From positions 1 through 16,577 of the forward strand of contig JAYEMF010000061.1 of the NCBI GenBank assembly GCA_034717975.1: a stretch of 16,577 nucleotides of DNA, given 5' to 3'. The stretch comes from Campylobacterota bacterium. GTDB taxonomy: Bacteria > Campylobacterota > Campylobacteria > Campylobacterales > Sulfurimonadaceae. The translations under genes were made by a program, and so were the position numbers. The notes under the pieces are model-generated. The model was not told the DNA's origin. It searched no databases and saw only the letters and a program-made list of their open reading frames with translations. Below are positions 1 through 9,909 of this stretch, piece by piece; position 1 is the first letter of the stretch, and each line of letters opens with the position of its first letter.

Positions 1-1
1 G

Positions 2-436
2 TATAACCTCTTTCATGACACCCTCATCTCCGAGATCACCGATTTTGAGAAGATCGGCTGTTTTGCCAATGCCGAATTTGCCGATGAGAGTGAAGTACTT
101 GAGATCGATTTCAAAGGTTTCAAATCACTCTATGAGCACTCCCCGCAACTTATGCTGGGCCTGCTTAAAGAGTTCGCCAGAAAAGCCAAGATGATGCAGT
201 GTATCATCAACCGGGAGATCGTTTTTGACGGGACTGCCAAAGTCGCCTTTATGCTCATCAATGATCTGGACAGCTTCAACCGCCTCAAGAAGCAGGAGGT
301 TGCCTATATGCTCAATATCCAGCCTGAAACCCTCTCGCGCATCCTGAAAAAACTGACCCGTAACGGCATCATCACGACCGAAGAGAACAAAATCATGATT
401 AGTGATGAGAGCGCACTTAAAGCCATATTTGATTAA
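2..436 (+). CDS. Crp/Fnr-family transcriptional regulator (NssR/Dnr-like), 5'-truncated by the window edge
   Basis: Frame is open from position 2 (YNLFHDTLISEITDFEKIGCFANAEFADESEVLEIDF... cNMP-barrel end) through the C-helix to the HTH KQEVAYMLNIQPETLSRILKKL with the Fnr-type E-x-x-S-R recognition helix. The ORF-track ATG at 152 is internal. Confidence 0.93.
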   Translation, partial: YNLFHDTLISEITDFEKIGCFANAEFADESEVLEIDFKGFKSLYEHSPQLMLGLLKEFARKAKMMQCIINREIVFDGTAKVAFMLINDLDSFNRLKKQEVAYMLNIQPETLSRILKKLTRNGIITTEENKIMISDESALKAIFD

Positions 437-450
437 CAAAGGAGTCTCAC

Positions 451-1779
451 GTGAATAAAATTACCACCAAAGTGAAACTGATCGGCGGGATCCTCTCGTT
501 GATGATCGCTGCCATTGTCGTCATCACCGTCATTATCAACCAAAACTCCTCACATGACTCTATCGTTATCAATGTGGCGGGAAAACAGCGTATGCTGACA
601 CAAAAGATCACAAAAGAGGTGATGTGGCTGCAAAACCGCGGCTCGGTTGACTTCACCAACCTTGATGCGGCCATCAGTGAATTTGACAACTCCCTCAATG
701 ACCTGATGGAGGGTAATGACGCACGCGGTATCTATGCCCCGCCGAAGGCATGTATCAAAGCCAGGCTGGGACAGGTCCGGGCATTATGGTTACCATTCCA
801 CGATCATCTGGACAGCTTCAAACTCCTGCTCTCACAGACCAAAACACTTAAAGCGACAATGTCTGAATCGACCGAAGCTATCTTGAATATCTCCGATCGT
901 GTAGTCAAGCAGATGGTCAAAGAAGGTATGGGAGGCCGTTACATCGATGATGCAGGCAGACAGCGCATGCTTACCCAAAAACTTGCCTTCCACTCCGCAC
1001 AGTACCTCATAACCGGAAGCGCACAGAGCGTCACCGCATTTTTTAATGCCTATGCTCTTTATGAATCGACACTGAAACATTTTCTAAGTGATGCCAGAGT
1101 GCAGAAACAGGTAGAACTTTTTAAAATACTTGAGAAAAACGAGCAGATCTGGTTTGACTATGCCAACTACATCATTGACCTGATGGATAAACAAAAAGAG
1201 CTCAATGAAACATTGGCATATCTCACCGAAATCAATATTGTTTTGCTGAACACTATGGATGAAACGGTAGAATCCTACAGTACCTACTCCGAAGATCAGC
1301 GCCAGTTTCTGCAGTATTTTCAATATATCGCCAGCTTCTTTGCCGTTATATTTATGATCTTTGCTGCGCGTCTTACAAAAAATATTGAACAGAATTTCGA
1401 GCATTTTCTACAGCACTCTGAAGCGATGGCAAGCTCGTTCAGCGATGAGGGCACCTCCGATATCGCTAAAAACAGAGAGAACGATGAACTGGCACTGGCA
1501 TCAATGCATATGAGCCAGTTTATGCAGCAGATGAATACCGTCATCGAGCATGCACAGCAGGCCATTCATGAATCAGAACAGGCAGCGCAGGAGCTGGCGG
1601 CCATATCGGACTCCATGGATGATGAGCTTGCGCTTGATGAAGATTCAAAAGAGCGCATCGACAACAGTGAAGATATCGTTATCCAGACCCTCGACGAGCT
1701 GAGCAATACCTCACAACTTCTTACCAAACTGCAGCAAAATCTTAGCAGTGTGATGACAAAAACACAAAATCATGACTAA
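451..1779 (+). CDS. Membrane-anchored putative nitrate/nitrite sensor: TM - tandem NarX-like/PilJ N-terminal sensor domains - TM - degenerate HAMP - short coiled-coil tail, no catalytic output domain
   Basis: GTG start with SD AAGGAG at 439-444. TM1 about aa 10-30, TM2 about aa 286-307. Two P-box-like motifs: INVAGKQRMLTQK (aa 40-52) and IDDAGRQRMLTQK (aa 165-177). HAMP-like NDELALASMHMSQFMQQM. No H-box/HATPase and no MCP LLALNAAIEAARAG hairpin. Confidence 0.8.
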   Translation: MNKITTKVKLIGGILSLMIAAIVVITVIINQNSSHDSIVINVAGKQRMLTQKITKEVMWLQNRGSVDFTNLDAAISEFDNSLNDLMEGNDARGIYAPPKACIKARLGQVRALWLPFHDHLDSFKLLLSQTKTLKATMSESTEAILNISDRVVKQMVKEGMGGRYIDDAGRQRMLTQKLAFHSAQYLITGSAQSVTAFFNAYALYESTLKHFLSDARVQKQVELFKILEKNEQIWFDYANYIIDLMDKQKELNETLAYLTEINIVLLNTMDETVESYSTYSEDQRQFLQYFQYIASFFAVIFMIFAARLTKNIEQNFEHFLQHSEAMASSFSDEGTSDIAKNRENDELALASMHMSQFMQQMNTVIEHAQQAIHESEQAAQELAAISDSMDDELALDEDSKERIDNSEDIVIQTLDELSNTSQLLTKLQQNLSSVMTKTQNHD

Positions 1780-1852
1780 CTTATCTTTGTGACTTTGCAA
1801 ACTGGTAAAAAAGTATCACCTTAAATAGCTCTTACAAAATTTCTATCAAAAA

Positions 1853-1866
1853 TTGACCTATGTCAA
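1853..1866. promoter_or_regulatory. Fnr/Dnr/Nss-type binding site TTGAC-CTAT-GTCAA upstream of napA
   Basis: Perfect TTGAC-N4-GTCAA palindrome, 21 nt upstream of TACAAT (centre about -40.5 if +1 is near 1900). 13/14 identical to the box at 9547-9560. Confidence 0.88.
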
Positions 1867-1887
1867 AAAAAAGCTTTCCTATTGCGT

Positions 1888-1893
1888 TACAAT
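1888..1893 (+). promoter_or_regulatory. sigma70 -10 element of the nap operon (gtTACAAT)
   Basis: Matches the gnTAnAAT pattern, lies at class-II spacing from the Fnr-type box, and gives a leader of about 70 nt to the napA ATG. Confidence 0.7.
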
Positions 1894-1968
1894 GTGTCGT
1901 TACCTATAGAATCAGAGTGCTGATCATCTTTAATGATAAGGTGTTCTGTTCAATTTAAGGAGGGACAA

Positions 1969-4806
1969 ATGAGCAAAATGATGGATAGAAGAAGTTTTCT
2001 TAAGAGTGCTGCGGCTGCTTCAGCTGCAAGTGCGATTGGAATGACTATTCCGACGGATGCACAGGCTGCATCGGATGCGGCACAAAGCGACTGGCGCTGG
2101 GATAAGGCGGCCTGTCGTTTCTGTGGTACCGGTTGTGGGATCATGATGGCGACCAAAGAGGGTCGTGTTGTTGCGGTCAAGGGGGACCCGGCAGCTCCAG
2201 TAAATCGTGGTCTGAACTGTATCAAGGGTTACTTCAACGCGAAGATCATGTATGGTGCTGACCGTTTGACGAAACCTTTGCTGCGTGTTAATTCAAAAGG
2301 CGAATTTGATAAAAAAGGTAAATTTGCCGAAGTAAGCTGGGAACGTGCTTTTGACGAGATGGAACATCACGCCAAAAAAGCGCTTAAAGCAAGCGGACCG
2401 GAAGGTGTCGCAGTATTCGCTTCCGGACAGTACACTGTTATGGAAGGTGTTGCTGCACAAAAAATGATGAAAGCCGGATTCCGTTCAAATGCGATCGATC
2501 CGAATGCACGTCACTGTATGGCATCAGCGGTTGTTGGTTTCTACCAGACTTTCGGTATCGATGAGCCGTCTGGCTGTTATGATGATATCGAGCTGACAGA
2601 TACGATTGTATCTTGGGGTTCAAACATGGCAGAGATGCACCCGATCCTCTGGTCTCGTGTAACTGACCGTAAACTGACTGATCCTGATCGCGTTAAAGTG
2701 GTCAATATGTCAACTTACCGCCACAGAACATCAGATTTGGCCGATATCGAGATCATCTTCTCGCCAAATACCGACCTTGCAATCTGGAACTACATTGCAC
2801 GTGAGATCGTTTACAATCACCCTGAAGCAATTGACTGGGATTTCGTCAAGAAACACATCGTGTTTGCAGCGTCTCCGGTAAATATGGGTTACGGTATGCG
2901 TCGTGCAGGTGAGAAGTCACTGAAAGACGGTAAGTATACTGCTCTTGAAATGGAAACTATCTCTAAAGAGATGAGTAAAGTCGTTTCTGAAAAAGAGGCA
3001 CCTGCTCTTGAGCCTTACGGTTACAAAGCCGGTGACAACATGGAGATGAAACCTGCCGGTCTTAAACACTGGGAGATCTCATTCGAAGAGTATAAAAAAT
3101 TCCTTGCTCCATATACACTTGATTATGTGGCAAACATTGCCAAAGGTGATCCAAACGAGAGCGTTGAAAGCTATGCGGCCAAACTGCAGGCACTTGCAGA
3201 CCTATATATCGAAAAAGGGCGTAAAGTCGTCTCTTTCTGGACAATGGGTATGAATCAGCATACACGTGGTACCTGGGTAAATACACTCTCTTACAACGTT
3301 CACTTCCTGCTTAACAAACAAGCTAAGCCGGGTGATGGTGCATTCTCACTGACTGGTCAGCCTTCAGCTTGTGGTACAGCTCGTGAAGTTGGTACATTCT
3401 GTCACAGACTTCCAGCCGATATGATGGTTAAAAGTCCTAAACACAGAAAAATCTGTGAAACTGCATGGAAAATCCCGGACGGTACACTAAACCCTGTCGG
3501 AAACCAGCACATCATGAAGATCCACCGCGATATTGAAGATGGTGTTGTTAAATTTGCATGGGTCAACGTATGTAACCCATACCAAGATACTGCATCAGCA
3601 AGTCACTGGATCAAAGCGGCACGTGAGATGGATAACTTCATCGTATGTTCAGACGGTTACCCCGGTATCTCTGCAAAAGTTTCTGACCTGATCCTTCCGA
3701 CAGCGATGATCTATGAAAAATGGGGTGCTTACGGTAATGCCGAGCGTCGTACACAGCACTGGAGACAACAGGTCCTTCCGGTAGGTGATTCGATGTCTGA
3801 CACATGGCAGTGGGTTGAGTTCTCAAAACGCTTTACTGTTAAAGATCTTTGGGGTGCACAACCACTAAGAGGTAAAAACAAAGACGGTTCACCAAAAGGA
3901 CTTCCGGATGTAATTGCCAAAGCGAAAGCGATGGGCTACAGTGAAAATGACACAATGTTTGACATCCTGTTTAACAATGAGTACTACCGCTCGTTCAAAA
4001 TCGACATGAATGATCCAGTTCAAAAAGGTTATGACAACTCTGAGTGTAACGGCGATAGCCGTAACGTTGTCGGATCTGACGGTAAAGTGTGGAAAGGGTA
4101 TGGTTTCTTTATCCATAAAGCACTGTTTGAAGAGTATGCTAACTTTGGACGCGGTCATGCACATGACCTGGCACCATTTGATGTCTACCATAAAGTACGT
4201 GGTCTTAAATGGCCTGTTGTCGATGGTAAAGAGACTCAATGGCGTTTCAATGTCAAGTACGATCCATATGCAGCCAAAGCCAATGCCAAAGCGGGTACAG
4301 ATAACTCTCACGCCTTCTACGGAACACTGGCTAAAGCTCTGACTCAGGGTGACCTGATGGGTATTAAAGATAAAAAGAAAAAATCACTGGCAAATAAAGC
4401 GAAGATCTTTGCACGTCCGTATATGGATCCTCCAGAAATGCCAGATAACACATGGGATCTATGGCTTTGTACCGGCCGTGTACTTGAACACTGGCACTCT
4501 GGAACAATGACAATGCGTGTACCTGAACTTTACCGTGCGGTACCGGAAGCACTCTGTTATATGCACCCTGCCGATGCGAAAAAACGTGGCGTTAAACGTG
4601 GTGAACTGGTTAATGTTGAATCACGTCGCGGAAGCGTTAAAGCACGTGTCGAGACTCGTGGACGTAACAGACCACCTGAAGGTCTATGTTTCGTACCTTG
4701 GTTCGATGAAAAAGTATTTATCAATAAAGTCTGTCTTGATGCGACATGTCCGCAATCTAAACAGACCGACTTTAAAAAATGTGCCGTAAAAGTCACGAAG
4801 GCGTAA
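1969..4806 (+). CDS. napA: Periplasmic nitrate reductase catalytic subunit NapA (Mo-bisMGD, [4Fe-4S]), epsilon-type large form
   Basis: Tat signal [15 protein letters not shown]...C cluster motif, NARHCMASA Mo ligand, [26 protein letters not shown] and DFKKCAVK. Start moved from 1933 to ATG 1969, which follows SD AAGGAGG at 1957-1963. Confidence 0.98.
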
Positions 4807-4833
4807 TCCTTCAGTGCCATAGCGGTCAGTGTA

Positions 4834-4858
4834 GGTAGATGGGCTTAGCTCATTTACC
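4834..4858 (+). other. Intra-operon RNA stem-loop between napA and napG
   Basis: GGTAGATGGGC-TTA-GCTCATTTACC forms an 11-bp stem with two G-U pairs and has no classical U-tract. Confidence 0.6.
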
Positions 4859-4880
4859 GTTATAAATAAAAAGTGTAACA

Positions 4881-5681
4881 GTGAAAAAAGAACCTCTAAG
4901 CGATCGTCGCAAATTTATCCTCACCATGGCACGGGGCGTTGGCCTTAGTGCGATGGGTGCTCTTGTATGGAGTGCTTATGTCGATGAAGTTAAAGCGGCG
5001 CCGCTTATTTTACGTCCTCCAGGTGCACTTGCCGAAGAGGATTTTTTAAAAACATGTATCAAATGTGGCTTGTGTGTGGAGGCGTGTCCTTACGATACGC
5101 TCCTGCTCGCCAAGCCGGGAGATAACAATCCTATCGGTACGCCATTTTTCATTCCAAAAGATATCCCGTGCTATATGTGCGACGATATTCCTTGTGTTCC
5201 GGTCTGTCCGACCGGCGCACTGGACACGGCATCGGTACAGTCAGAAATTGACGGCGAGATGACGTGGGATATCATGAAGATGGATATGGGCGTAGCCATT
5301 GTCGACGTCAAATCATGCATCGCGTTCTGGGGAATCCAGTGCGATGCGTGTTATCGCGCCTGTCCACTAATGGATGAAGCGATTTATCTTGATTATGACA
5401 AAAATGAACGGACCGGGAAGCACGCTTTTTTGAAGCCTGTTGTCAATCCTGACATCTGTACAGGCTGCGGCCTGTGCGAACGAGCCTGTGTGACGGAAAA
5501 ACCGGCAATTTTAGTACTGCCGAATGAAGTTGCACTCGGTAAAGCGGGTGACCACTATATCAAAGGCTGGGACAAAGCTGATGAAGAACGTCTCGAAGGT
5601 GCTAAAGCTGAGACGACAACGACTGAGCTAAGTAAAGAGAGCGCAATGGATTCGCTTAACGATATGGGAGATCTGTACTGA
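4881..5681 (+). CDS. napG: Ferredoxin-type protein NapG (quinol dehydrogenase periplasmic subunit)
   Basis: Tat motif DRRKFIL, LRPPGA, CIKCGLCVEACP, CYMCDDIPCVPVCP, CDACYRACP and CTGCGLCERAC. GTG start. Confidence 0.96.
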   Translation: MKKEPLSDRRKFILTMARGVGLSAMGALVWSAYVDEVKAAPLILRPPGALAEEDFLKTCIKCGLCVEACPYDTLLLAKPGDNNPIGTPFFIPKDIPCYMCDDIPCVPVCPTGALDTASVQSEIDGEMTWDIMKMDMGVAIVDVKSCIAFWGIQCDACYRACPLMDEAIYLDYDKNERTGKHAFLKPVVNPDICTGCGLCERACVTEKPAILVLPNEVALGKAGDHYIKGWDKADEERLEGAKAETTTTELSKESAMDSLNDMGDLY

Positions 5682-6499
5682 TGAAAAAGATACGTTATTT
5701 ACTGATGCGTCGATTTGTTCAGATCGGATTGATGGTACTTTATTTTGGTGCCAATGCCTACGGATGGAAGATCCTGCAGGGGAACCTAAGCGGTTCACTG
5801 CTGTTTGAGACTGTTCCGCTGGCAGACCCGTATGCGTTGATTCAGATGCTGTTTGCCGGAGCTGTTCTGGCAACCGACATCATTATCGGTGGAGTGATCA
5901 TCGCTGTTATCTATATGATTGTCGGTGGTCGTGCTTTTTGTAGCTGGGTCTGCCCAATCAATATGGTTACAGACCTGGCTAACTGGCTACGCCGTAAGAT
6001 CGGTGTCTCTCAGGTTCAAAAACGCGTCTATATGAGTCGCAACATCCGTTTCTGGATGCTCGGCTTAAGCCTTATCCTCTCAGTAGTGATGGGTGTGGCG
6101 GCGTTTGAACTGATCAGCCCGATCTCCATGGTGCACCGTGGTCTTGTCTTTGGCATGGGTCTTGGTATCGGAGCGATTGTTGTTATCTTCTTGTTTGATC
6201 TGTTTGTACATGAAAACGGATGGTGCGGGCATATCTGTCCACTTGGCGGATTTTACTCCATTTTGGGGAAAATCTCGCTAATCAGGGTTCGCCACGATGC
6301 GGACGCCTGTACTGCCTGTATGAAATGTAAAGAGGTTTGTCCGGAAAAAGAGGTGCTGCATATGGTAGCAAAGAGCAGTGAGAGTGTGTTAATGGGGCAG
6401 TGTACCAACTGCGCACGCTGTATTGAAGTGTGTGACGATGATGCACTGAACTTCTCACTGCGAAGTCTTGTTAAAAAAGAAAAGAAGGGGAACGCATGA
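5681..6499 (+). CDS. napH: Quinol dehydrogenase membrane subunit NapH
   Basis: RRFVQ, several TMs, GRAFCSWVCP, GWCGHICPLG and two C-terminal CxxCxxCxxxC motifs. TGATG overlap with napG. Confidence 0.96.
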   Translation: MKKIRYLLMRRFVQIGLMVLYFGANAYGWKILQGNLSGSLLFETVPLADPYALIQMLFAGAVLATDIIIGGVIIAVIYMIVGGRAFCSWVCPINMVTDLANWLRRKIGVSQVQKRVYMSRNIRFWMLGLSLILSVVMGVAAFELISPISMVHRGLVFGMGLGIGAIVVIFLFDLFVHENGWCGHICPLGGFYSILGKISLIRVRHDADACTACMKCKEVCPEKEVLHMVAKSSESVLMGQCTNCARCIEVCDDDALNFSLRSLVKKEKKGNA

Positions 6500-7122
6500 A
6501 AATGAAAATTGTTCTAGGCGCTATTACAGCTGCGATGCTGATGGTCGGTTGTACTGATTCGGCTGCGCCAGCTGCGCAAGCTGAAGTAAAACCAACAATT
6601 ACAGAAGAGTCTTTGGGTCTGCGTAAAACAGATCTTTATTCAGAAAATACAACCGTAGCTGCGAAGACAACGTACGGAACGGCTGCTGCAGGCGGCTCGG
6701 CAAAATTTGAGCGTGCATTTGACAATGCACCACCGATGATCCCGCACGATACGGAAGGGATGTTGCCAATCACTATGAATGACAACCAGTGTACCGGATG
6801 TCATATGCCGGAAGTAGCACCATCTATGGGGGCAACGCCGATTCCGGCATCGCACTTTGCAAGTTTCAGACCGGTTACGGAGATCGGTGCCGATGATAGA
6901 ATGGTAAAAGATGGAGCATCTGTAGACAATACAAGTGACAAACTGACATCACTGCATACAATGGATACGATGAATCACGCGCGTTACAACTGTTCACAGT
7001 GTCACGCACCACAGTCAACCGGTGATCTGCTGGTTGAAAATAACTTCCGCCCTGACTTTCAGAGCGAAAGCATGAAAAGCGGTTCTAGCCTGCTTGATAC
7101 CCTGAATACAGGTGTAAAATAG
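6496..7122 (+). CDS. napB: Diheme cytochrome c subunit NapB
   Basis: NAPPMIPH, CTGCH and CSQCH heme motifs, SHF. N-terminal signal ends in MVGC. ATGA overlap with napH. Confidence 0.96.
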   Translation: MKMKIVLGAITAAMLMVGCTDSAAPAAQAEVKPTITEESLGLRKTDLYSENTTVAAKTTYGTAAAGGSAKFERAFDNAPPMIPHDTEGMLPITMNDNQCTGCHMPEVAPSMGATPIPASHFASFRPVTEIGADDRMVKDGASVDNTSDKLTSLHTMDTMNHARYNCSQCHAPQSTGDLLVENNFRPDFQSESMKSGSSLLDTLNTGVK

Positions 7123-7602
7123 TTGGCAGACCTAAGCCGACGCGGTTTTTTTGGTGCCATTGGCGCCAAAGCCGTCAGTAAGGAGATCAAAATACGACCT
7201 CCTTACGCCAAAGAGAGTACTCTTTTTGGCACAGAGTGTCCCCAGTGTACTGGAGTTTGCGGCACTGTGTGCGAAGAAGAGATCATCAAGTTTGGTACAG
7301 ACAAGATTCCGTATCTCGATTTTTCAAAGAGTGGTTGTACCTACTGTGAAGAGTGTCTGAGTGCATGCGAACCGGGAGTCCTCAGTGATCCCGAGATAAA
7401 GGTACAGGCTTCCATCCGTATTAATCCAGCCAAATGTATGAGCTGGGAAGAGGTGATGTGTTTCTCCTGTAAAGAGCCGTGCCTGGATAATGCGATCATC
7501 TTCAGCGGGCTCTTCAAGCCAGAGATCAATAATGAGCTATGCACCTCATGTGGTTTCTGCCTTGGCCGTTGTCCAAGCAATGCCATAGAGATAGTGGCTT
7601 AA
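7123..7602 (+). CDS. napF: Ferredoxin-type protein NapF
   Basis: TTG start directly after the napB TAG. SRRGFF, IRPPY and four Cys clusters. Confidence 0.93.
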   Translation: MADLSRRGFFGAIGAKAVSKEIKIRPPYAKESTLFGTECPQCTGVCGTVCEEEIIKFGTDKIPYLDFSKSGCTYCEECLSACEPGVLSDPEIKVQASIRINPAKCMSWEEVMCFSCKEPCLDNAIIFSGLFKPEINNELCTSCGFCLGRCPSNAIEIVA

Positions 7603-7624
7603 AACAGAAAAGAGAGTAAGTAAT

Positions 7625-8587
7625 ATGTTAAAACCTATCTTTGCGCTTCTCATGCTATTGGCCATCACCACTTGTGCCAAAGAGATCAAGCCGGTTTATG
7701 AACTGAAGACAAGCGGGTTTGTTACCGATATAATCATTGATGAGGGCAAACTGTATGCCTCAACCTTTAGCGGTGCCGTCGATATTTTTGATATTAAAAG
7801 CAAAAAAAAGAGTGCTGATATCAAACTGCCCAATATTACCGACTTTATAGGAGATGTCGTTCCTCCAAAAGTCTACTCTGTCGATCGTCTGGCCAATAAG
7901 ACAATGATGGTCTCCGAAGGAAAATCGGGCTACCGCAACGTCTTTTTACATGACGGTAAAACGCTTACCCTGCTAAGTGAGTCAAAGTTTTTCATTAAAA
8001 AAGGACTTTTTGTCGATGAAGATCACATACTTCTGGGTCTTCTTAGCTCTGAACTCATACTTTTCAAGATCAGCACCAAAGAGGTGATCTACCGGCATCC
8101 TATTCTGGAACGTCGCAGCGGCGGTTCAGCTTTTAGCGATATGGTCCTGAGTGAAGATAGAAAAACGGTCGCGACTGCAGACGAGAGCGGTGAAATCCAT
8201 CTCTTCAATGTGGAGGATTTCAAACATCTAAAACTCTATGTTGGCCAAAACCTCGATAACATCTACAAGATCGACTATAAAAAAGGGATGATTATTACTG
8301 CCGGGCAGGATAGACGCTGTGCCATCTATAAACCTGATGGCAGAGCCTATTATGTCAATGGTGAATTTCTGATCTATGCTGCCGCGCTAAGCCCGTCGAG
8401 CAAGACAGGTGTCTTTGCCTCGACTGTGGAAAACGATCTTCAGCTTTTCAACACGGTTACAAAAAGCAAGACCCATCTTCTTAAAGGGCATGGTGCTACA
8501 CTTACAGACTTTGCCTTTTTGAGTGAGACCCAGTTCTTCTCATCGGCAGAAGAGAAGCGTATCCTATTTTGGGATATCACAAAGTAA
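7625..8587 (+). CDS. napL: NapL, WD40-like beta-propeller accessory protein
   Basis: Signal peptide, WD40-like repeats (LKGHGATLTDFAF...RILFWD), and position between napF and napD as in the epsilon napAGHBFLD operon. Confidence 0.88.
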   Translation: MLKPIFALLMLLAITTCAKEIKPVYELKTSGFVTDIIIDEGKLYASTFSGAVDIFDIKSKKKSADIKLPNITDFIGDVVPPKVYSVDRLANKTMMVSEGKSGYRNVFLHDGKTLTLLSESKFFIKKGLFVDEDHILLGLLSSELILFKISTKEVIYRHPILERRSGGSAFSDMVLSEDRKTVATADESGEIHLFNVEDFKHLKLYVGQNLDNIYKIDYKKGMIITAGQDRRCAIYKPDGRAYYVNGEFLIYAAALSPSSKTGVFASTVENDLQLFNTVTKSKTHLLKGHGATLTDFAFLSETQFFSSAEEKRILFWDITK

Positions 8588-8614
8588 ATTTTAAATTAAT
8601 CAGGAGAGTAACAT

Positions 8615-8965
8615 ATGAATGTATCAAGTATTGTCGTACAAACTACACCAAAGTTTATTGACGAAGTTGTGGAAGCACTGAAAAATCTGGATATATGTGA
8701 CTACCACTTTCACGATGAGATGGGACGCATAATTGTTACCATCGAGGGTTCAGGTGTGGAAGAGGAGATCAAGAAACTGACAGTCATCCAGGAGATGCCT
8801 CATATTGTTGCAGCCGATATGCATTTTGCCTATACGGAAGATGAACTTGATGCCGAACGTGACAAGCTTGAAAAAGAGGGGACTGCTCTTCCTGAATGGC
8901 TCAACAAGGAAGATGTCAATGTTAGAGACATCCAATATCACGGTGATCTCAAAAAGAAATTCTAA
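8615..8965 (+). CDS. napD: NapD Tat-proofreading chaperone
   Basis: MNVSSIVV...GRIIVTIEG signature, SD AGGAG, and operon position. Confidence 0.95.
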   Translation: MNVSSIVVQTTPKFIDEVVEALKNLDICDYHFHDEMGRIIVTIEGSGVEEEIKKLTVIQEMPHIVAADMHFAYTEDELDAERDKLEKEGTALPEWLNKEDVNVRDIQYHGDLKKKF

Positions 8966-8975
8966 GGAGCTATCC

Positions 8976-9503
8976 ATGGAAACCTCATTTGCTATATTTC
9001 AGGAGACAGAAGTACCTGAAAATGAGCTCATCATCTCACGTACTGATCTCTCTGGTATCATCACCTATGTCAATGATACCTTTGCAGAGATTTCAGGCTA
9101 CGATAACGATGAACTGATCGGCCAATCACACAACATTTTACGTCATCCCGATATGCCGCACAGTGTCTTCAAAACATTGTGGGATACCATCGAAGCTGGA
9201 AACAGCTGGGAAGGCTACGTCAAAAACCGACGCAAAGACAACGGCTACTACTGGGTCTATGCAAACATCAGCGGTGTCTATAAAGACGGGAAGCTGGTCG
9301 AGTATAAATCCCTGCGTTCATTTGTACCAAAAGCAAAACGTGACGAGGTCCAAAAAGTCTATGATGAACTGCGCCAAAATGAAGGAGACACTGTACGTAC
9401 AGTCACCTACCTTCCTGCCGATCTTTACACATCATTGAAACTCGAAGCCAGCGACAGCGGTCAGTCAATCGACGATCTTGTAATCGCTAAACTAAGTAAA
9501 TAA
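8976..9503 (+). CDS. Aer/CetB-type PAS (probable FAD-binding) protein with a C-terminal ribbon-helix-helix-like segment
   Basis: ATG at 8976 follows SD AAGGAG overlapping the napD stop; the ORF-track start at 8805 overlaps napD and is rejected. IISRTDLSGIITYVNDTFAEISGY...HNILRHPDMP...LWDTI...WEGYVKNRRKDNGYYWV is the Aer PAS signature. Tail: VRTVTYLPADLYTSLKLEASDSGQSIDDLVIAKL. Confidence 0.9.
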   Translation: METSFAIFQETEVPENELIISRTDLSGIITYVNDTFAEISGYDNDELIGQSHNILRHPDMPHSVFKTLWDTIEAGNSWEGYVKNRRKDNGYYWVYANISGVYKDGKLVEYKSLRSFVPKAKRDEVQKVYDELRQNEGDTVRTVTYLPADLYTSLKLEASDSGQSIDDLVIAKLSK

Positions 9504-9546: not shown

Positions 9547-9560
9547 TTGACCTAAGTCAA
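9547..9560. promoter_or_regulatory. Fnr/Dnr/Nss-type binding site TTGAC-CTAA-GTCAA upstream of the cytochrome c553 gene
   Basis: Perfect TTGAC-N4-GTCAA, 22 nt upstream of TATAAT (centre about -41.5 if +1 is near 9595). Confidence 0.9.
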
Positions 9561-9615: not shown

Positions 9616-9909
9616 ATGAAGAAAGTACTTCTCGCAGGTTTAATGGTAGTTGGTATGTCATCGGTAGCATTTGCAGATGGTGCAGCTGCGTATAAAAAAT
9701 GTGCAGGCTGTCACGGTGCAAACGGTGAAAAAGTAGCTCTTGGTAAAAGTAAAGTGATCAAAGATATGTCAAAAGCTGATATTGTTGCTGCTATGAAAGG
9801 CTACAAAGACGGTACTTATGGCGGTCCAATGAAAGGGTTGATGAAAGGTCAAGTTGCTTCAATGAGTGATGCCGATATTCAAGCTATCGCAGATATGATC
9901 GGAAAATAA
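9616..9909 (+). CDS. Periplasmic monoheme cytochrome c553 (class I)
   Basis: Sec signal ending AFA, CAGCH, and distal Met region GGPMKGLMKGQ, typical of epsilon c553. Confidence 0.93.
   Translation: MKKVLLAGLMVVGMSSVAFADGAAAYKKCAGCHGANGEKVALGKSKVIKDMSKADIVAAMKGYKDGTYGGPMKGLMKGQVASMSDADIQAIADMIGK

Follow-up and report, generated by a model that had tools for sequence, protein, structure and literature searches.

The cytoplasmic tail of a membrane protein encoded in the window (the whole 16,577-nucleotide stretch of Campylobacterota DNA that was analyzed) is best explained as the module through which a conserved transmembrane nitrate sensor, lacking both a kinase and a chemoreceptor tip, delivers its output; taken jointly with binding of the tail to the Crp/Fnr-type regulator encoded next to it, this reading is one that we hold to be somewhat probable. 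The sensor ORF (451..1779, 442 aa; all features described here lie on the + strand) is built in the order TM1, two PilJ modules, TM2 and an enzyme-free tail, and it ends in the translation of the window with a TAA stop at 1777-1779. TM1 (about aa 9-31, 475..543) appears as a hydrophobic run in the translation and is helical in the AlphaFold2 model, and TM2 (about aa 289-311, 1315..1383) was located from translation and model together. PilJ was the only Pfam domain found in the protein, in two stretches (E 5.7e-24), with no significant domain in the tail, and NCBIfam returned no match; the DHp (HisKA_3) and HATPase_c domains of a histidine kinase were absent from the protein in both collections.

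In the AlphaFold2 model, a single helix (221-328) spans TM2 and is followed by a disordered segment (329-344, pLDDT <50) and by two further helices, 345-392 and 397-440. The tail begins with a HAMP-like segment (aa 307 to about 362, 1369..1536) made up of an AS1-like helix, the low-confidence connector at 329-344 and an AS2-like start with DEL..AS. This part is called degenerate because Pfam HAMP went undetected: the family was not reported for the sensor protein at E≤0.01, and at E≤10 it appeared neither among the 10 families listed for the tail of the window nor among the 25 most-matched ones shown for 17 tails. Tail helix 1 (aa 345-392, 1483..1626), taken from the AlphaFold2 model, aligns to the N-arm of chemoreceptors and leads into a family-variable acidic linker, DSMDDELALDEDSKE (aa 387-401, 1609..1653), at the hairpin turn. 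Tail helix 2 (aa 397-440, 1639..1770) carries the best-conserved motif of the family, SEDIVIQTLDEL (aa 406-417, 1666..1701), which aligns to TEE.AI.TTE.LE of the chemoreceptor N-arm. An earlier note on this DNA had described some 135 aa after TM2, with a degenerate HAMP and two helices joined by an acidic linker, and the helices and the linker are present in the translation. Modeled alone, the tail forms the same hairpin as in the whole-protein model, with a pLDDT of 55-83; confidence in it is only moderate, because the C-arm, with which the N-arm pairs in chemoreceptors, is missing here, and the predicted hairpin may not be the native fold.

The conserved motif of the tail, SEDI.IQS.EEL, lies outside the linker, at the start of helix 2. 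Among 72 distinct homologous tails, E407 (window numbering) is invariant and seven more columns are at least 90% conserved, including F319, D408 and I411; within 25 closer relatives, F319, E346, L347, E407, L424 and L427 are invariant. Judged from its sequence, the tail is more than a chance feature, since it is conserved over these 72 homologues. The net charge of the tail is on the acidic side throughout the family (median -7, range -15 to +1 in the 72), and in the window it is -19 over 136 aa.

The origin of the tail was followed by profile comparison. Aligned with hhalign to 15 chemoreceptors, the tail family gave a probability of 98.7% (E 4.5e-16, 136 columns), and the alignment is colinear with HAMP and N-arm, with the HAMP-like segment matching the HAMP of the 15 chemoreceptors column by column, and ends about 36 residues short of the signaling tip. 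A search of the tail profile against 1.84 billion representatives retrieved 182 proteins at the cut-off of E≤1e-3; the top ones all belong to the sensor family, and from E ~1e-10 downwards there follow longer proteins in which the match is internal, with all 17 of the long matches that were scanned proving to be chemoreceptors. Searches by sequence and by fold that started from the tail alone brought up generic coiled coils only: Foldseek with the tail model, a check proposed in the earlier note, found nothing at E≤1e-3 (best, the p85 iSH2 coiled coil, E 0.2), and a profile search of the PDB had keratin as its best match (E 0.043). MCPsignal (PF00015) was not significant for the sensor protein and was seen in 3 of 17 tails, at best with E 0.042. 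The conserved tip, which chemoreceptors require for coupling to CheA and CheW, is absent from the sensor by both Pfam and hhalign, and so is the C-terminal arm with the second methylation helix: the ORF ends at aa 442, and each of 75 homologues has 0-19 aa between the end of the tail profile and the C-terminus. Campylobacterota chemoreceptors that combine HAMP with a cytoplasmic domain of 40-heptad-like type (P0215, of 530 aa, is an example) are colinear with the tail over HAMP and the initial ~88 N-arm residues and share the TEE.AI.TTE.LE / SEDI.IQS.EEL motif with it, but they run on to the conserved tip QTNLLALNAAIEAARAGE and then back along the C-arm, which the sensor family does not. As read from these alignments, the comparisons show descent of the tail from a chemoreceptor HAMP and membrane-proximal N-arm, with loss of tip and C-arm, and the idea of a chemoreceptor minus its tip, voiced in the earlier note, is thereby borne out.

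A short receptor of this kind might be thought a recently truncated chemoreceptor or kinase, i.e., a pseudogene, and its length is the one thing that speaks for this. The homologues, however, come from several families of the phylum, and all 75 end at the same place. In addition, 41 other protein clusters of 418-468 aa (29-61% identity) cover 92-100% of the sensor query. Whether close homologues might be full-length chemoreceptors or kinases had been raised as the refuting case; they are not, as the close ones all share the same length and C-terminus. The dN/dS of the tail is 0.036-0.135 in 8 of 10 close pairs, those for which dS was computable, and in 6 of these 8 it is no higher than that of the sensor part. 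Nor does a remnant follow the gene: the region 1780-1968 has stops in all three frames, and a related full-length chemoreceptor, used as tblastn query on the window with E up to 10, gave one chance match (6979-7032), in agreement with the clean ORF end and absent kinase remnant remarked upon earlier. The shared C-terminus, the low dN/dS and the missing remnant refute the pseudogene, which is almost certainly not what this gene is; at the sequence level, they show an evolved architecture under purifying selection.

On the input side, the N-box pattern [IVL]-[ND]-x-A-G-x-Q-R-M-L-[ST]-Q (PMC6381276) is matched exactly twice in the sensor, by N-box 1, INVAGKQRMLTQ (aa 40-51, 568..603), and by N-box 2, IDDAGRQRMLTQ (aa 165-176, 943..978), the latter in the second PilJ stretch. 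N-box 1, the nitrate motif of the PilJ domain, is also supported by the alignment to the ligand-binding domain of McpN (6gcv; phmmer E 3e-7), to whose fold the sensor can be superposed with an rmsd of 1.3 Å and 34% identity over 84 columns. The entire periplasmic part resembles the PilJ structures 8wdf/7zjr (Foldseek E 4e-7). By sequence, then, the nitrate N-boxes are intact in both periplasmic PilJ modules, and the sensor is predicted to bind nitrate in the manner of the N-box PilJ type, of which McpN is the example. McpN, the nitrate chemoreceptor of Pseudomonas aeruginosa (PDB 6gcv, PMC6381276), is like the sensor a transmembrane receptor with an N-box PilJ ligand-binding domain and a HAMP-type segment after TM2; it differs in having a single PilJ module and a complete chemoreceptor signaling domain, whereas the sensor has two N-box modules and a stub that ends after the proximal N-arm, without tip and without C-arm. 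The nitrate/nitrite kinases NarX and NarQ are described as sensing nitrate through a periplasmic four-helix domain with a G-x-x-R site and transmitting the signal via TM2 and HAMP (PMC8199190). These features, with a HAMP-like segment in the sensor, would be common to both designs, but NarX and NarQ have DHp and ATPase domains and the sensor has neither. HisKA_3 was not found anywhere in the genome to which the window belongs (99.9% complete). This genome has four NIT-domain ORFs as other possible nitrate/nitrite sensors, namely two chemoreceptors, a 1081-aa hybrid histidine kinase and a 295-aa NIT-only protein.

Directly upstream of the sensor gene lies the 3′ part (144 codons, 2..436) of a gene for a Crp/Fnr-family, Nss-type regulator (HTH_Crp_2, E 9e-12), the 5′ part of which is cut off by the contig end, the window being the whole contig; it ends at 436, ahead of the sensor start at 451 and in the same orientation, and its product shares 76% identity with the full 218-aa regulator encoded at a related locus, L001. 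In 15 of 16 loci, the sensor gene is directly preceded by a co-oriented Crp ORF of 200-250 aa (gap -56 to +11 nt); a sample of 401 genomes of the phylum added 60 loci, all with this layout (-47 to +26 nt), which makes 75 of 76 loci overall (-56 to +26 nt). The two genes often overlap by 4 or 8 nt. No third gene beside the pair is common to all loci. Across five complete genomes, the 7 Crp genes that lie next to a sensor gene match the partner profile at E≤1e-84 and the 10 other paralogues at 1e-50 or worse. Six residues are conserved in regulators paired with a sensor and not in the 7 orphan paralogues compared, and five of them fall in the DNA-binding domain (F149, L163, N167, Q181 and R194, L001 numbering). 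Like the tails, the regulators carry a net negative charge (median -4).

Regulators of this family have been characterized in Wolinella succinogenes, where NssA, NssB and NssC are described (Kern and Simon 2016, as reported in citing papers) as Crp/Fnr-family proteins that act at TTGA-N6-TCAA sites and switch on nap, nrf and nos upon nitrate, NO or N2O. Nitrosophilus labii has a Crp gene upstream of nap whose identity to NssA is given as 44.8%. The window regulator is like these proteins in family, and its gene precedes a sensor gene, whereas the accessible parts of the citing literature mention no sensor partner for the Nss proteins; a literature search, through the parts of papers open to it, brought up no description of such a sensor-regulator pair. 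How the Nss-type regulators perceive nitrate, NO or N2O was still unknown according to a 2021 review.

A perfect Crp/Fnr-type box, TTGACCTATGTCAA (1853..1866, from a sequence scan), stands in the napA promoter region, ahead of the presumed target operon napAGHBFLD (1933..8965, assigned by Pfam/NCBIfam; napA more likely starts at 1969). The pair usually stands ahead of an operon, nap in the window, with a TTGAC-N4-GTCAA box in its promoter region. The TACAAT at 1888..1893 may by inference be a -10 element, which would put the box center near -41.5; a consensus scan of 1700-2000 showed neither a complete sigma-70 promoter nor a terminator. A perfect TTGA-N6-TCAA box within 300 nt past the sensor stop is present in 29 of 72 pairs, with 0.039 expected per 300 nt. 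In the four metatranscriptome runs inspected, all from one sample, about a tenth of the sampled words were contained, and the reads falling on 1-4000 of the window were short conserved napA pieces only, 95-99% alike and coming from relatives; they are uninformative as to sensor expression.

Fifteen sensors have the same tail and no N-box, and 13 of these lie 13-137 nt before nosZ. They form one clade (support 100/100), their Crp partners form another (support 100), and both nest in the same 37-row clade of the sensor and Crp trees, the Crp tree having been made with FastTree and the sensor tree by a different method. Congruence of this sort does not show contact, since adjacent genes are inherited together. 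The family looks modular by sequence, with the same tail combined with a ligand part with or without the N-box.

How the tail might act was approached by complex prediction. The pair of L001 (58% and 76% identity to the window proteins) was modeled as two tails and one Crp with 72-row alignments, because the regulator gene of the window is incomplete. The complex score was 0.33 (runs 0.25, 0.33 and 0.35), against 0.02 for the best of 3 controls; the runs agreed in at least 78% of contacts, with a pLDDT of at least 84 for the partner and only 52-55 for the tail chains. In the calibration, which used single-chain pairs and the tool's own alignments, unlike the two-tail, one-Crp job, 116 of 157 solved complexes passed the mark, as did 2 of 215 mismatched pairs; passes at scores ≤0.60 came from only 18 of the 157 and from both of these mismatches, and the score of 0.33 falls in a range in which a pass is wrong more often than right. 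For the L001 pair, the prediction yielded no interface, and it gives weak support to binding of the tail to the regulator. In the mechanism that we favor, nitrate binding would shift TM2 and the HAMP-like segment, which would alter the coiled-coil tail; the tail would contact the co-encoded regulator directly, either holding it at the membrane or releasing or activating it, and nap would be transcribed in the presence of nitrate. That the tail signals by binding its co-encoded regulator is, we think, a little better than an even bet. The earlier suggestion of a tail made for protein-protein contact survives as the most economical reading, the strictly conserved neighbor being a Crp/Fnr regulator. 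Against direct binding, the adjacency of regulator and sensor could reflect co-regulation alone, and of the 60 rows with an N-box, 24 show no napA and no nosZ in the stretch examined, with other candidate sensors present in the genome.

The same 24 rows would suit a tail that signals to a partner encoded elsewhere, such as related chemoreceptors or another signaling enzyme, the Crp adjacency then being a matter of shared regulation or regulon. The homology of the tail to chemoreceptor HAMP and N-arm fits this, as do the related chemoreceptors that many of the phylum's genomes contain (weaker matches, found in frames of >500 aa), and the computed support for Crp binding is weak. Yet the Crp gene is the one universal neighbor, often with overlapping stop and start codons, and the tip needed for CheA/CheW coupling is gone. 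Moreover, the genome of the window has a single tail-profile match (E≤1e-5), so that no close chemoreceptor relative is at hand for mixed bundles, and a distant partner is on the whole unlikely. The earlier note had further proposed that the acidic patch could bind, as a DNA mimic, to a basic helix-turn-helix, here that of the regulator, which would make the sensor an anti-activator. The net acidity of the tails and the 5 of 6 paired-specific residues in the DNA-binding domain could be taken in this sense, but the linker varies in length and charge, being -7 in the window, an extreme case, and +1 to -6 in 16 relatives, and it is nearly deleted in that of locus L023. Since the acidic linker is not conserved, the idea finds no support; the conserved SEDI.IQS.EEL motif sits elsewhere, the regulators are acidic too, the paired-specific residues might just as well determine which DNA box is preferred, and no interface was predicted. 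We regard DNA mimicry as improbable, and would say as much of a sensor that does not signal at all but is a nitrate-binding membrane protein with another role (e.g., a scaffold for Nap maturation) or a mere target of the regulator. The want of an output enzyme and of a demonstrated partner speaks for such a protein, and so do the other candidate nitrate sensors; however, the tail with its HAMP-like segment is constrained at least as strongly as the sensor part in most pairs, the paralogues with a changed ligand site track another operon, nos, as a specificity-determining sensor would, and the pair is also found away from nap.

Nitrate and N2O are both respired by Campylobacterota. A wider reading, which we advance tentatively and consider doubtful as a whole, would see here a phylum-wide form of phosphotransfer-free signaling, in which a receptor made of a ligand-specific PilJ-type module and a chemoreceptor-derived HAMP/coiled-coil stub would govern a Crp/Fnr regulator by direct contact; in its N-box form it would then be the missing nitrate sensor of NssA-type regulation, and the N-box-less nosZ paralogue the sensor for N2O-responsive (NssC-type) regulation and the first N2O sensor protein. 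Control of regulators by protein contact without phosphotransfer is familiar from PipX with NtcA and from Mlc with the glucose transporter. NreA is likewise described as an accessory or sensor protein that controls the NreBC system by contact, without phosphotransfer. None of these is known to act on a Crp-family regulator through a transmembrane receptor whose coiled coil derives from a chemoreceptor, as is proposed for the pair considered here.

The genome of the window lacks a NarX/NarQ-type kinase domain, and the 2021 review left Nss signal perception unexplained; the regulator-sensor pair may explain how a whole phylum turns on nitrate and nitrous-oxide respiration. If the tail does bind the regulator, it would represent a new wiring of a transmembrane receptor to transcription, and an example of a chemoreceptor scaffold that was cut down and then reused. 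The nos-linked paralogue, if this is true, would hint at a switch for N2O reduction, a greenhouse-gas sink.

The window represents one entire contig from a Campylobacterota genome of 2.52 Mb that is 99.9% complete. Its forward strand opens with a Crp/Fnr-type regulator gene that is cut by the contig end, so that only its 3′ part (2–436) is present, followed by the sensor ORF (451–1779, 442 aa) and, after a spacer of 153 nt, by napAGHBFLD, as identified by Pfam and NCBIfam scans. A PAS protein gene and then a cytochrome c gene lie 3′ of this operon, and maf, a DUF2269 gene, alaS and a PAS-GGDEF-EAL gene are found on the opposite strand. The ATG at 1969 is the more likely start of napA than that at 1933, because it is preceded by AGGAGG at 1958–1963 and directly followed by the twin-arginine motif, and because NapA profiles begin to align at residue 17 of the ORF. 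The PAS-only protein gene (8805–9503) comes after napD and, since the ORF as listed overlaps napD, its real start probably lies further downstream. According to a figure legend, the denitrification genes of Nitrosophilus labii likewise include one for a PAS-domain protein, and the protein of the window may be an additional regulatory part.

The sensor consists of a first transmembrane helix (~9–31), a periplasmic region in which Pfam recognises two PilJ stretches (E 5.7e-24) and a second transmembrane helix (~289–311), after which 131–135 residues remain that match nothing in Pfam or NCBIfam. Each PilJ module contains an exact N-box, [IVL]-[ND]-x-A-G-x-Q-R-M-L-[ST]-Q, at residues 40–51 and 165–176. 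Martin-Mora et al. (PMC6381276) defined this pattern as characteristic of PilJ domains that bind nitrate, and describe the N-box arginine of McpN as hydrogen-bonding nitrate. The sensor matches the McpN ligand-binding domain in sequence (E 3e-7) and in fold (34% identity, rmsd 1.3 Å over 84 columns). Over its entire periplasmic part it also matches the bimodular McpS domain and the two-module region of PilJ (8wdf and 7zjr; E 4e-7, with TM-scores by target of 0.70 and 0.65). From the two exact N-boxes, together with the McpN and two-module PilJ matches, we infer on good grounds that the input would be nitrate. No other PilJ protein was found in the same genome.

The earlier note had read the cytoplasmic tail as resembling a chemoreceptor that has lost its signalling tip, ending cleanly and without a kinase remnant, and every sequence element that it quoted was found in its place in the 442-aa ORF. 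Nothing kinase- or chemoreceptor-like was found 3′ of the stop codon (TAA, 1777–1779). The suggested search for homologues sharing length and C-terminus returned 41 other protein clusters of 418–468 aa, which span 92–100% of the sensor at 29–61% identity, and a shorter form of ~300–345 aa with a single PilJ module and the same tail. Among the 75 homologues for which DNA was available (15 on named contigs and 60 in 401 sampled genomes of the phylum), the tail profile stops 0–19 aa short of the stop codon in all 75; close homologues are thus not full-length chemoreceptors or kinases, the outcome that would have refuted the note. The best-conserved tail positions are F319, the DEL..AS stretch (E346, L347) and the SEDI.IQS.EEL motif that opens the last helix, with E407 invariant in 72 of 72 tails. 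In eight of ten close pairs, those with unsaturated dS, the tail dN/dS was 0.036–0.135, and in six of these eight it did not exceed that of the sensor part. The observation of the note is confirmed, and the tail is an evolved module.

Neither solved structures nor Pfam, when searched with the tail, returned anything beyond coiled-coil noise. The tail profile, when run against 1.84 billion representative proteins, gave 182 matches at E ≤ 1e-3. The top matches were all members of the sensor family, aligned at the extreme C-terminus, and from ~E 1e-10 downward the matches were internal to longer proteins. Twenty of the matched proteins were scanned, of which three were short fragments and 17 were long, all 17 being chemoreceptors (16 with HAMP) in which the match covers HAMP and the stretch ahead of the Pfam signalling core. 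When the profile of 17 tails was aligned with that of 15 chemoreceptors of this kind, the probability was 98.7% (E 4.5e-16, 136 colinear columns), with SEDI.IQS.EEL aligned to the receptors’ TEE.AI.TTE.LE. The tail corresponds to HAMP and roughly 88 residues from the beginning of the N-arm, and stops ~36 residues before the tip motif. The likeness seen earlier was therefore apt, but the loss goes beyond the tip, as the whole C-arm is absent too. In the parent chemoreceptors, the homologous stretch forms an arm that pairs with the C-arm, whereas AlphaFold2 predicts, with moderate confidence, that the remaining piece folds into an antiparallel hairpin (345–392 and 397–440); this is a candidate fold, from which the native dimer may differ.

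A Crp/Fnr-type gene is the constant neighbour of this sensor. Fifteen of the 16 named loci with a complete sensor gene carry a complete Crp/Fnr ORF of 216–227 aa 5′ of the sensor (end-to-start distance −56 to +11 nt), as do all 60 further loci (−47 to +26 nt, many with 4- or 8-nt overlaps). At the sixteenth named locus, one of 76 in all, a Crp gene fragment (L012:5793–5948, 52 aligned residues) is all that precedes the sensor, and this gene may be broken or divergent. PilJ proteins of other phyla in the same scan had neither the tail nor a Crp neighbour. No third gene common to all loci was found: NapA is encoded 3′ in 26 of 72 loci, NosZ 3′ in 15 and a MoaA-like protein 5′ in 15. In five complete genomes, the partner profile matches the seven regulators encoded next to a sensor at E ≤ 1e-84, and ten other Crp paralogues at 1e-50 or worse. 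The partners combine a cNMP-binding-type domain with an HTH whose recognition helix carries E..SR, and share no invariant cysteine. F73, F149, L163, N167, Q181 and R194 are conserved in paired regulators but not among seven orphan paralogues that these genomes also encode; the six residues are numbered on the regulator (L001:5327–5980) of the relative with the closest complete pair, whose C-terminal part is equivalent to window 2–436.

In 29 of 72 distinct pairs, the 300 nt that follow the sensor gene contain a perfect TTGA-N6-TCAA box, against a background of 0.039 perfect boxes per 300 nt, and 45 of the 72 have a box with at most one mismatch. When TTGAC-N4-GTCAA was sought in the window with one mismatch allowed, two matches were obtained, both perfect and both intergenic. 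One (1853–1866) precedes napA; TACAAT at 1888–1893 would put it near −41.5, though a consensus scan of 1700–2000 did not find a full promoter. The other, TTGACCTAAGTCAA (9547–9560), lies between the PAS-protein gene, which ends at 9503, and the cytochrome c gene (9616–9909), which may be driven by the same regulator.

The ligand site varies with the operon. Among 75 sensor rows compared (three of them duplicates), 60 have an N-box-like motif; napA follows within 1 kb on the same strand in 25 of these (23 distinct) and lies elsewhere within the stretch in nine, nosZ follows in two, and 24 have neither. Of the 15 sensors without the motif, 13 stand 13–137 nt ahead of a cytochrome-c-type nosZ (L122:7778–12103, and loci L118, L120, L121, L123–L129, L131 and L132). 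The N-box-less sensors carry a conserved N-x-Q-K-x-F-T-Q-E-I in place of the G-x-x-R site, with a tail unchanged in kind, and their pair is a candidate sensor for an N2O-reductase-inducing signal. Their 15 tails form one clade (IQ-TREE, support 100/100), and their 15 regulators another (FastTree, 100). Because both nest inside the same 37-row clade in either tree, the two genes of the pair have duplicated and diverged together, and their ligand site goes with the operon. The matched clades show functional pairing and not physical contact, since related rows carry the same labels and adjacent genes are inherited together.

A mechanism can be proposed from these parts, namely the nitrate-type input, the constrained, enzyme-less, chemoreceptor-derived tail, the obligatory Crp neighbour and the Crp boxes at the downstream promoter. 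Nitrate binding would be relayed through the second transmembrane helix and the HAMP-like segment to the coiled-coil tail, which would touch the regulator and so alter its availability or activity. The interpretation in the earlier note, a minimal coiled-coil contact module, is partly supported: the tail is chemoreceptor-derived and evolved, a role in protein contact is probable, and the Crp regulator is the likely partner; that the tail binds it directly we consider slightly better than an even bet. Complex prediction for the L001 pair (two tails and one regulator, 72-row alignments) scored 0.33 (runs 0.25, 0.33 and 0.35) against 0.02 for the best of three controls. In the calibration, 116 of 157 solved complexes and two of 215 mismatched pairs reached the mark, but only 18 of the 157, plus both passing mismatches, reached it with a score of 0.60 or under, and the L001 job was set up differently from the calibration. 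The runs agreed in at least 78% of contacts, with a pLDDT of at least 84 for the regulator and only 52–55 for the tail chains, and no interface was returned; the verdict was weak support for contact.

It had also been suggested that the acidic linker of the tail acts as a DNA mimic. Most tails are acidic, with a median charge of −7, and five of the six paired-specific regulator residues fall in the DNA-binding domain, where they could equally set box preference; the linker itself, however, varies in length and charge, from +1 to −6 in 16 relatives versus −7 in the window copy, where alone it is extreme, and the suggestion is unsupported. The overall picture is weakened by four NIT-domain ORFs of the same genome, which are other candidate sensors (G000 contigs C16:533–1225, C78:6940–7647, C26:6463–7212 and C77:13944–14627). 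Two of them encode chemoreceptors, of 748 and 659 aa, one a hybrid histidine kinase of 1081 aa, and one a 295-aa protein that is NIT-only and has no output domain. No HisKA_3 domain was found in this genome. Expression data gave no information on the sensor: over window 1–4000, four metatranscriptome runs of one sample covered just short, conserved pieces of napA, 95–99% alike and derived from relatives. Literature searches, in which Kern and Simon (2016) was represented through citing papers, found no published account of the sensor gene beside the regulator. There is a fair chance that the tail marks a new way to wire a receptor to a Crp-family regulator.
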